This document shows positions 59,953 through 61,378 of a stretch of DNA of 64,000 nucleotides, one piece after another (the stretch's first letter is position 1; each line of letters opens with the position of its first letter). Location: NCBI RefSeq assembly GCF_003334405.1, contig NZ_QOWM01000005.1, one strand, 5' to 3'. The position numbers and the translations under genes are program-made. The notes beneath the pieces were generated by a model that did not search any database, was not told the DNA's origin, and worked only from the letters and a program-made list of their open reading frames with translations. The DNA comes from Escherichia coli. Lineage in GTDB: Bacteria > Pseudomonadota > Gammaproteobacteria > Enterobacterales > Enterobacteriaceae.

Positions 59953-60081
59953 GATTCGGCTCTCCATTTTTTGTTGCCTTAGATATCAATGAAAATGAAA
60001 AATGGCAGCGGAACGGAAAATCTGTTTTGTGAAAACACACGCATAAAAATGTTTTAAATCGGGTTTTAATGGACTCACAAG

Positions 60082-61276
60082 GGAAGGTGCGAATAAGCGG
60101 GGAAATTCTTCTCGGCTGACTCAGTCATTTCATTTCTTCATGTTTGAGCCGATTTTTTCTCCCGTAAATGCCTTGAATCAGCCTATTTAGACCGTTTCTT
60201 CGCCATTTAAGGCGTTATCCCCAGTTTTTAGTGAGATCTCTCCCACTGACGTATCATTTGGTCCACCCGAAACAGGTTGGCCAGGGTGAATAACATCGCC
60301 AGTTGGTTATCGTTTTTCAGCAGCCCCTTGTATCTGGCTTTCACGAAGCCGAACTGCCGCTTGATGATGCGAAACGGGTGCTCTACCTTGGCACGGATGC
60401 TGGCTTTCATGTATTCGACGTTGATGGCCGTTTTGTTCTTGCGCGGATGCTGCTTCAAGGTTTTTACCTTGCCGGGACGCTCGGCGATCAGCCAGTCCAC
60501 ATCCACCTCGGCCAGCTCCTCGCGCTGTGGCGCTCCTTGGTAGCCGGCATCGGCTGAGACAAATTGCTCCTCTCCATGAAGCAGATTACCCAGCTGATTG
60601 AGGTCATGCTCGTTGGCCGCGGTGGTGACTAGGCTGTGGGTCAGGCCACTCTTGGCATCGACACCAATGTGGGCCTTCATGCCAAAGTGCCACTGATTGC
60701 CTTTCTTGGTCTGATGCATCTCCGGATCGCGTTGCTGCTCTTTGTTCTTGGTAGAGCTGGGTGCCTCAATGATGGTGGCATCCACCAAAGTGCCTTGGGT
60801 CATCATGACGCCTGCTTCGGCCAGCCAGCGATTGATGGTCTTGAACAATTGACGGGCCAGTTGATGCTGCTCGAGCAGGTGGCGGAAATTCATGATGGTG
60901 GTGCGATCCGGCAGGGCGCTATCCAGGGATAATCGGGCAAACAGGCGCATGGAGGCGATTTCGTACAGGGCATCTTCCATGGCACCGTCGCTCAGGTTGT
61001 ACCAATGCTGCATGCAGTGAATACGCAGCATGGTCTCCAGCGGATAGGGCCGTCGGCCATTGCCCGCCTTGGGATAAAACGGCTCGATGACAGCGGTCAT
61101 ATTCTGCCATGGCAGAATCTGCTCCATGCGGGAGAGGAAAATCTCTTTTCGGGTCTGACGGCGCTTAGTGCTGAATTCACTATCGGCGAAGGTGAGTTGA
61201 TGGCTCATGATGTCCCTCTGGGATGCGCTCCGGATGAAGATGATGATCTCATATCAGGAACTTATTCGCACCTTCC
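60082..61276. mobile_element. IS5 insertion sequence, 1195 bp, with 16-bp terminal inverted repeats GGAAGGTGCGAATAAG / CTTATTCGCACCTTCC
   Basis: Both IS5 termini read directly; internal transposase ORF present. Flanking 4-mers CAAG (left) and TGAG (right) are not a direct duplication. Confidence 0.95.
60228..61208 (-). CDS. insH: IS5 transposase InsH (DDE), 326 aa
   Basis: Translation begins [37 protein letters not shown]..., the IS5 transposase sequence. Confidence 0.96.
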
Positions 61277-61378
61277 TGAGCGGTAGTAAAGTCCTAAAAC
61301 TTTAACCTGCCGTTAATGTCAACCTTGCGTAATGCACAATTACGTAAACAATTAAAATTATAAATATAGGAGTCCGGC

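Follow-up and report, generated by a model that had tools for sequence, protein, structure and literature searches.

An ISKpn26-type IS5 element in place of the regulator gene lgoR between lgoD and lgoT of Escherichia coli

How does an Escherichia coli chromosome come to carry intact lgoD and lgoT, two divergently oriented genes of L-galactonate use, with an insertion sequence (IS) at the place where the gene of their regulator, lgoR, is expected, and what may this mean for the pathway? The question is raised by a 64,000-nucleotide stretch of contig NZ_QOWM01000005.1 (assembly GCF_003334405.1), the whole of which we call the window. An initial annotation of this DNA had described an intact 1195-bp IS5 at 60082-61276, had expected lgoR between lgoD and lgoT from the K-12 gene order, and had proposed an IS5-associated adjacent deletion. 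This gene order is correct, as lgoR is found between lgoD and lgoT in K-12 BW25113 and in strain 64.1. In this study, we defined what the element has replaced, examined how widely the resulting allele is distributed in E. coli, and weighed the routes by which it may have arisen. The element itself, the exact end points of the deletion, the absence of lgoR, the single origin and the frequency of the allele, and the intact open reading frames (ORFs) of lgoD and lgoT are established. We regard it as fairly probable that this is a lineage-specific lgoR null allele made by an ISKpn26-type IS5, through insertion followed by adjacent deletion.

The element between the two genes is complete, and its parts are as follows.

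60082-61276, minus strand: ISKpn26-type IS5-family insertion sequence, complete, 1195 bp (sequence, alignment and profile search)
60082-60097, no strand assigned: IRR, the terminal inverted repeat at the 3' end of the element, on the lgoD side (read from the sequence)
61261-61276, no strand assigned: IRL, the terminal inverted repeat at the 5' end of the element, on the lgoT side (read from the sequence)
60228-61208, minus strand: transposase gene (ins5A/insH homologue), 326 aa, intact, the sole ORF of the element
60082-60258, minus strand: 177-bp 3'-terminal "IB" region, facing lgoD (match to K-12 IS5A)

The 16-bp terminal inverted repeats, GGAAGGTGCGAATAAG, match perfectly between the two ends, and the length of about 1.2 kb and the 16-bp repeats, GGAAGGTGCGAA(T/C)AAG, are those of the IS5 group. 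The transposase ORF covers the full NCBIfam profile NF033581, "IS5 family transposase," with a score of 366 bits against a curated cut-off of 140 bits. It is identical to K-12 InsH1 at 320 of 327 residues and differs from WP_000019440.1 by the single substitution I264V. At the nucleotide level the element agrees with K-12 IS5A at 1123 of 1195 positions (94.0%), and with the same-locus copy of strain 14EC001, as well as with copies in Edwardsiella anguillarum, at 1192 of 1195 (99.75%). RefSeq calls the transposase "IS5-like element ISKpn26 family transposase." Judged by these comparisons, the name IS5 used in the initial annotation is acceptable, and "ISKpn26-type IS5 isoform," with ISKpn26 taken from the RefSeq naming of the transposase, would be more exact. 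The window holds this one copy only. Counted from the IRR end, the first 183 nucleotides of the element are identical to K-12 IS5A, and the IB region is 100% conserved, its IHF site and A-tracts included. In K-12 IS5, IB comprises an IHF site and a permanent bend, and its function has been established only at glpFK (PMC2753651). Three substitutions are private to this copy among the ISKpn26-type copies examined (those of other carriers of the allele and of Edwardsiella), namely C at 60419, which gives the transposase change I264V, G at 61239, and A at 61264. The last of these makes the terminal repeats perfect; all other copies examined have G at this position and read GGAAGGTGCGAACAAG there.

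Alignment of the flanks to K-12 defined precisely what the element has displaced. In the K-12 BW25113 locus (L002 in our numbering), lgoD lies at 2731-3753 on the minus strand, lgoR at 3892-4806 on the plus strand and lgoT at 5021-6382 on the plus strand. In the window, the following DNA is retained on the two sides of the element.

59953-60081, no strand assigned: lgoD-side spacer, 129 bp kept of the 138-bp ancestral lgoD-lgoR divergent control region (alignment to K-12)
60078-60081, no strand assigned: left flank CAAG, which belongs to a minor class of IS5 targets and lies 10 bp upstream of where the ancestral lgoR began (sequence)
61277-61378, plus strand: lgoT-side spacer, the distal 102 bp kept of the 214-bp ancestral lgoR-lgoT spacer (alignment to K-12)
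61277-61280, no strand assigned: right flank TGAG, neither an IS5 target nor a repeat of the left flank (sequence)

On the left, an exact match to K-12 runs as far as L002 position 3882, 10 bp short of the lgoR ATG; on the right, the match restarts at position 4919. The element thus occupies the place of L002 3883-4918, a stretch of 1,036 bp made up of 9 bp that include the Shine-Dalgarno sequence of lgoR, GAGGAAAAT, of lgoR in its full length (915 bp), and of 112 bp from the 214-bp spacer between lgoR and lgoT. The only ambiguity at the junctions is one G, which can be assigned to the left flank or to the element. By eye, no microhomology was seen at the deletion ends beyond this 1-bp G at the left junction, so slippage between repeats is unsupported. 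The spacer lengths of 114 and 101 bp given in the initial annotation need correction to 129 and 102 bp: the former figure counts from an in-frame ATG further upstream, at 59967, with which the longest ORF begins, and the latter is off by one. Its statement that no remnant of lgoR is left in the flanks was borne out, as tblastn and blastn searches with K-12 LgoR and lgoR found nothing in the 64-kb window (best E-value, 0.36). The 4-bp target-site duplication usual for the IS5 family is missing, as had been noticed, the flanks being CAAG and TGAG. The element has kept both of its ends intact, and the loss of ancestral DNA runs outward from exactly one of them, the arrangement that an adjacent deletion leaves. 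The missing duplication reflects the history of this copy and is not a property of the element.

To place the locus in the species, we used a collection of 5,426 complete E. coli genomes. A census with the K-12 sequence spacer-lgoR-spacer as the query gave the following classes.

lgoR present: 4,399 genomes
Divergent allele, about 81% identical: about 806 genomes
No match at all: 115 genomes

The same flanks that border the element in the window are contiguous with lgoR in the 4,399 genomes of the first class. An ancestor that had never carried lgoR at this position is thereby ruled out, and a simple insertion misread as a deletion is ruled out as well, since the two flanks are not alike and 1,036 bp of the ancestral sequence are gone. 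The initial annotation had also left room for an intact lgoR elsewhere. Relocation of the gene is ruled out for the window, where no match was found, and for the carriers of the allele, where the census gave at most two matching places in any genome. The flanks of a carrier lie 1,195 bp apart, which is past the joining distance for the census query, and were therefore counted as two places; because two is the maximum and the flanks use both, no carrier has a third matching place that could hold a second lgoR-like copy. As an observation on the second census class, about 800 complete genomes (H74-H79 and H145-H153 among them) have a pair of lgoD and GntR-regulator genes that is only about 81% identical.

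The structure lgoD-IS-lgoT is shared by other strains. A 3.9-kb query across the locus recovered it in 81 of the 5,426 genomes at 99.1-99.9% identity, and junction-specific queries of 160 bp found the left junction in at least 74 genomes and the right junction in at least 73. The allele thus has a frequency of about 1.5% among complete E. coli genomes (about 73-81 of 5,426). Its carriers were isolated from humans, dogs, pigs, cattle, pigeons and frogs, among other hosts, and in some cases from water. Six carriers that we aligned have identical junctions and identical spacers, and the same six vary at up to 21 sites in lgoD and up to 20 in lgoT. Because identical junctions sit on mosaic flanking haplotypes, the alignments indicate a single old event, followed by descent and by homologous recombination among E. 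coli backgrounds. The differences among carriers in lgoD and lgoT are, on this comparison of sequences, imported haplotypes and not mutations that arose after the deletion. Compared with 14EC001, the window itself has 39 mismatches in 54900-58433 and only 5 in 58900-64000, a sharp drop that implies a recombination breakpoint between opgB and lgoD. We found no paper that describes the lgoR-replacing allele, which is annotated in dozens of RefSeq genomes. In kind it is an ordinary polymorphism, an inherited IS deletion. For annotation, it means that a missing lgoR is explained by a real deletion with defined end points and not by an assembly problem.

The two flanking tetranucleotides hold information on how the element arrived. 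The target of IS5 is YTAR, as derived from 220 reconstructed duplications (PMC5009759). We surveyed 52 flanks at the conserved (IRR) end of IS5 and ISKpn26 copies in a scan of one genome per species, with the following result.

YTAR: 40 of 52
CAAG or its complement CTTG: 6 of 52
Other: 6 of 52
TGAG or CTCA: 0 of 52

Among 14 flanks at the opposite end, TGAG and CTCA were likewise absent (0/14). The claim that CAAG fits an IS5 preference C(T/A)A(G/A) therefore holds for a minor class of targets, while the main consensus is YTAR. Nine of the 14 complete copies in the survey have a duplication and five have none. Hence, CAAG is a genuine minor target of IS5, TGAG is no target, and copies without a duplication are common.

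Among the routes to the present allele, insertion followed by an IS-anchored adjacent deletion is the most likely, one-step insertion with deletion comes second, and recombination between two copies comes third. In the first of these, CAAG, which lies 10 bp ahead of the lgoR start codon, would have been the insertion site. Starting from the lgoT-side end of the element, a deletion dependent on transposase would then have taken out the duplicated CAAG together with the 1,036 bp beyond it, and the allele would thereafter have been inherited and moved between E. coli backgrounds by homologous recombination. The proximal flank CAAG qualifies as a plausible original target. The mirror order, in which the element inserted at TGAG first and a leftward deletion then extended to CAAG, would be equally compatible with the end points, since either order pairs a good target with a poor one. 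The adjacent deletion proposed in the initial annotation is supported as to the 1,036 bp replaced and the missing duplication; it may have taken one step or two and run in either direction, TGAG is not a target, and no precursor was found among the 5,426 genomes. Replicative transposition in the IS5 family yields adjacent deletions, and such deletions account for all 14 of the duplication-less IS-associated deletions in three populations of the long-term evolution experiment (PMC11708052).

Events at the same locus in other strains show that IS-anchored stepwise deletion operates here. In strain B771 (L006 2800-4002), the right junction is the same as in the window and the left end of the element is shifted 229 bp into lgoD, where it abuts a canonical TTAA. 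This further deletion corresponds to window positions 59853-60081, and lgoD is annotated as a truncated pseudogene. A second series involves IS1. About 123 genomes have a simple insertion of IS1 in the lgoD-lgoR control region, with an 8-bp duplication, CGCATAAA, and an intact lgoR, and at least 6 genomes have IS1 with the same left junction and with lgoR deleted from IS1's right end. The IS1 left junction (L007 1596-2372 and L005 1596-2364; equivalent to window position ~60040-60047) lies 34 bp further left than that of ISKpn26, and the IS1 deletion spares 167 bp upstream of lgoT, compared with 102 bp in the ISKpn26 deletion. In both cases the control region was targeted, lgoR was lost and the lgoT-proximal region was spared. 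The cases differ in the IS family and in that precursor and product are both in the collection for IS1, so that two steps are documented directly for IS1 only. Because they occurred at the same locus, the B771 and IS1 parallels support a stepwise route for the ISKpn26 allele, and we infer that a two-step mechanism is probable.

Several observations weigh against insertion followed by adjacent deletion. Neither precursor was present among the 5,426 complete genomes, whether in the form element, CAAG and intact lgoR (0/5,426) or in the form intact lgoR, spacer, TGAG and element (0/5,426). The distal junction TGAG lies outside the IS5 targets of our survey, which is not what intramolecular transposition should leave, and the secondary deletion of B771, by contrast, stops at a canonical TTAA. 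The alternative that survives best on these grounds, though we consider it unlikely, is insertion with deletion in one step. Here the ends of the element would have been joined to positions 1,036 bp apart, through uncoupled strand transfer or through capture into a double-strand break or deletion intermediate, so that there would be no duplication and never a precursor. Both the failure to find a precursor of either order and a right flank outside the target spectrum are as this route predicts. It also has a published precedent, an IS5-family element found centrally in a fresh deletion without a duplication, for which insertion into DNA breaks was proposed (PMC11708052). However, a missing precursor is weak evidence where a single old event is concerned, and the left junction falls on a recognized minor target (6/52), which break capture does not predict. 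Moreover, stepwise adjacent deletions occur at this very locus, and those who described the precedent themselves allow for a fast route in two steps (PMC11708052). The combination of one minor-target and one non-target flank bears on the choice between adjacent deletion and one-step insertion with deletion. In this respect the locus offers a natural, dated-by-diversity, duplication-less IS5-type copy, both flanks of which can be compared with an intact ancestral sequence.

In its structure, the rearrangement belongs to the well-known class of IS-anchored deletions. Like the IS-anchored adjacent deletions made by IS150 in the Lenski lines and by IS903 and IS1 (PMC11708052), the window allele has a complete IS, lacks a duplication and has lost DNA from one end outward, with later extension possible, as in B771. 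Unlike those, it has no precursor found and a distal end off the target tetranucleotide, and it is natural and widely inherited, not a laboratory event. The 62-kb deletion of E. coli C with a central IS5-family element (PMC11708052) resembles it in its complete element ends, in the lack of a duplication and in a deletion at the element; there, in contrast, the element belongs to the IS903 subgroup and measures 1,051 bp, and the event arose overnight.

What the loss of lgoR does to L-galactonate use depends on the two genes that remain.

58930-59952, minus strand: lgoD, L-galactonate oxidoreductase, intact, 340 aa (RefSeq coordinates transferred from strain 14EC001)
61379-62740, plus strand: lgoT, L-galactonate:H+ symporter (MFS/ACS family), intact, 453 aa (RefSeq coordinates transferred)

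LgoT is a required and stereospecific L-galactonate:H+ symporter (bioRxiv 10.64898/2026.05.20.726482). lgoRT and lgoD form divergent operons, which respond also to D-glucuronate (PMC5934670). In the window, 1.2 kb of element stands between the lgoR promoter region and lgoT and would be read antisense to the transposase gene. Because the regulator gene is gone and lgoT lies 1.2 kb from the lgoR promoter region, we predict from the gene arrangement that LgoR-dependent induction is lost in carriers, and growth on L-galactonate is probably lost too. On this prediction, strains with the allele, about 1.5% of complete E. coli genomes, would differ from others in their use of L-galactonate. lgoD and lgoT would persist as genes that have not yet decayed, or through LgoR-independent expression. 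Two points count against such a loss of function: lgoD and lgoT are intact in every carrier examined but B771, which fits either a recent loss or continued use, and the role of LgoR as an activator rests on a growth phenotype quoted second-hand.

The second alternative, which we consider improbable, concerns this outcome and holds that the allele rewired the pathway instead of abolishing it. Transcription of lgoD would be driven by the IB region independently of LgoR. For lgoT, expression would come from the 102 bp left upstream of it, from the intact lgoR promoter by read-through of the element, or from a hybrid promoter of low strength. L-galactonate use would then be constitutive or under the control of CRP or ExuR. 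The retained control region includes two candidate elements.

60028-60043, no strand assigned: candidate CRP-like half-site pair TGTGA-N6-ACGCA (picked by eye)
60065-60070, no strand assigned: possible lgoR -10 hexamer TTTAAT (picked by eye)

In addition, the 102-bp lgoT-side spacer holds the lgoT ribosome-binding site and an inverted repeat, CGTAAT-N5-ATTACG, the latter picked out by eye. The orientation of the element agrees with rewiring on the lgoD side: lgoD faces the 3' end, with the ins5A promoter at the far end, an arrangement shared with the cases of activated glpFK, fucAO and flhDC (PMC2753651), and the IB region is fully conserved. The element ends 129 bp from the lgoD ATG, which is of the same order as the activating positions at flhDC, -99.5 and -169.5 relative to the transcription start (PMC2753651). 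The intact lgoD and lgoT on several haplotypes, the sparing of at least 102 bp upstream of lgoT by both the ISKpn26 and the IS1 deletions, and the response of lgoRT and lgoD to D-glucuronate as well (PMC5934670) would also suit it. Against these stand consensus scans for promoters and terminators in both spacers and the element ends, in which matches were no commoner than in shuffled sequence. Activation of glpFK by IS5 demands exact helical phasing (PMC2753651). B771 later lost the 5' end of lgoD, suggesting that the genes are dispensable in that lineage, and intact ORFs are expected equally from recency and from imported haplotypes. The initial annotation had placed a promoter-activating IS next to both promoters. 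By analogy with the K-12 cases (PMC2753651), the activating orientation, with the 3' IB end proximal and the ins5A promoter distal, would apply to lgoD only and not to lgoT.

Still more doubtful is the stronger form of this idea, in which the element takes the place of the regulator, with the IB/IHF module and the retained CRP-type region driving lgoD, and lgoT expressed by read-through or from its own promoter. If true, the persistence of the allele, with lgoD and lgoT unbroken on several haplotypes, would be explained by selection for rewired use of L-galactonate or hexuronates, and so would the independent and similar deletion of lgoR by IS1.

The likeness to IS5 at glpFK, fucAO, flhDC and bgl of K-12 (PMC2753651, PMC11894529) consists in an element upstream of a catabolic promoter, with IB proximal in the case of lgoD, and in an IB sequence identical to that of the window element. 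As at fucAO, a pathway-specific positive regulator would be bypassed. There are differences, however. In the window the regulator gene is physically deleted. lgoT lies on the 5' side of the element, an orientation without known activation, and no CRP site was seen by eye outside the 5' end of the element of the kind that would make a fusion promoter like that of fucAO.

The least probable of the alternatives returns to the origin of the allele and supposes that two same-orientation ISKpn26 copies once stood around lgoR, at CAAG and at TGAG, and that homologous recombination deleted lgoR together with one copy; although this is a general route to duplication-less copies, and three of the five such copies in our survey have canonical YTAR on both sides, as expected under IS-IS recombination or transposase-made rearrangements, it demands two independent same-orientation insertions within 1 kb, one of them at the non-target TGAG (0/52), and neither single-insertion state occurs among the 5,426 genomes. 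Two complete IS5-type copies in the survey have non-target flanks that do not match, one in Shimwellia with CTGG/CCAG and one in Citrobacter freundii with GAAG/CTCG (survey loci L026 and L047). These flanks resemble the TGAG side of the window element.

Between opgB and tsr, lgoD and lgoT stand in the K-12 arrangement by synteny and RefSeq names, and lgoD differs from that of K-12 by 16 synonymous and 3 non-synonymous codons. A pangenome study reported that no E. coli has both lgoT and a TRAP transporter set (siaP/siaT/nhaK) (PMC10769857). In the carrier strain J6 (H25, NZ_CP195973.1), an IS4-like ISVsa5 is annotated within the matched locus, the match falls into two pieces, and more than one IS5-family transposase feature is listed there. 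In strain 64.1, which has lgoR, lgoT (L003 5021-6382) is annotated as a pseudogene with an internal stop, so the lgo pathway decays also without insertion sequences.

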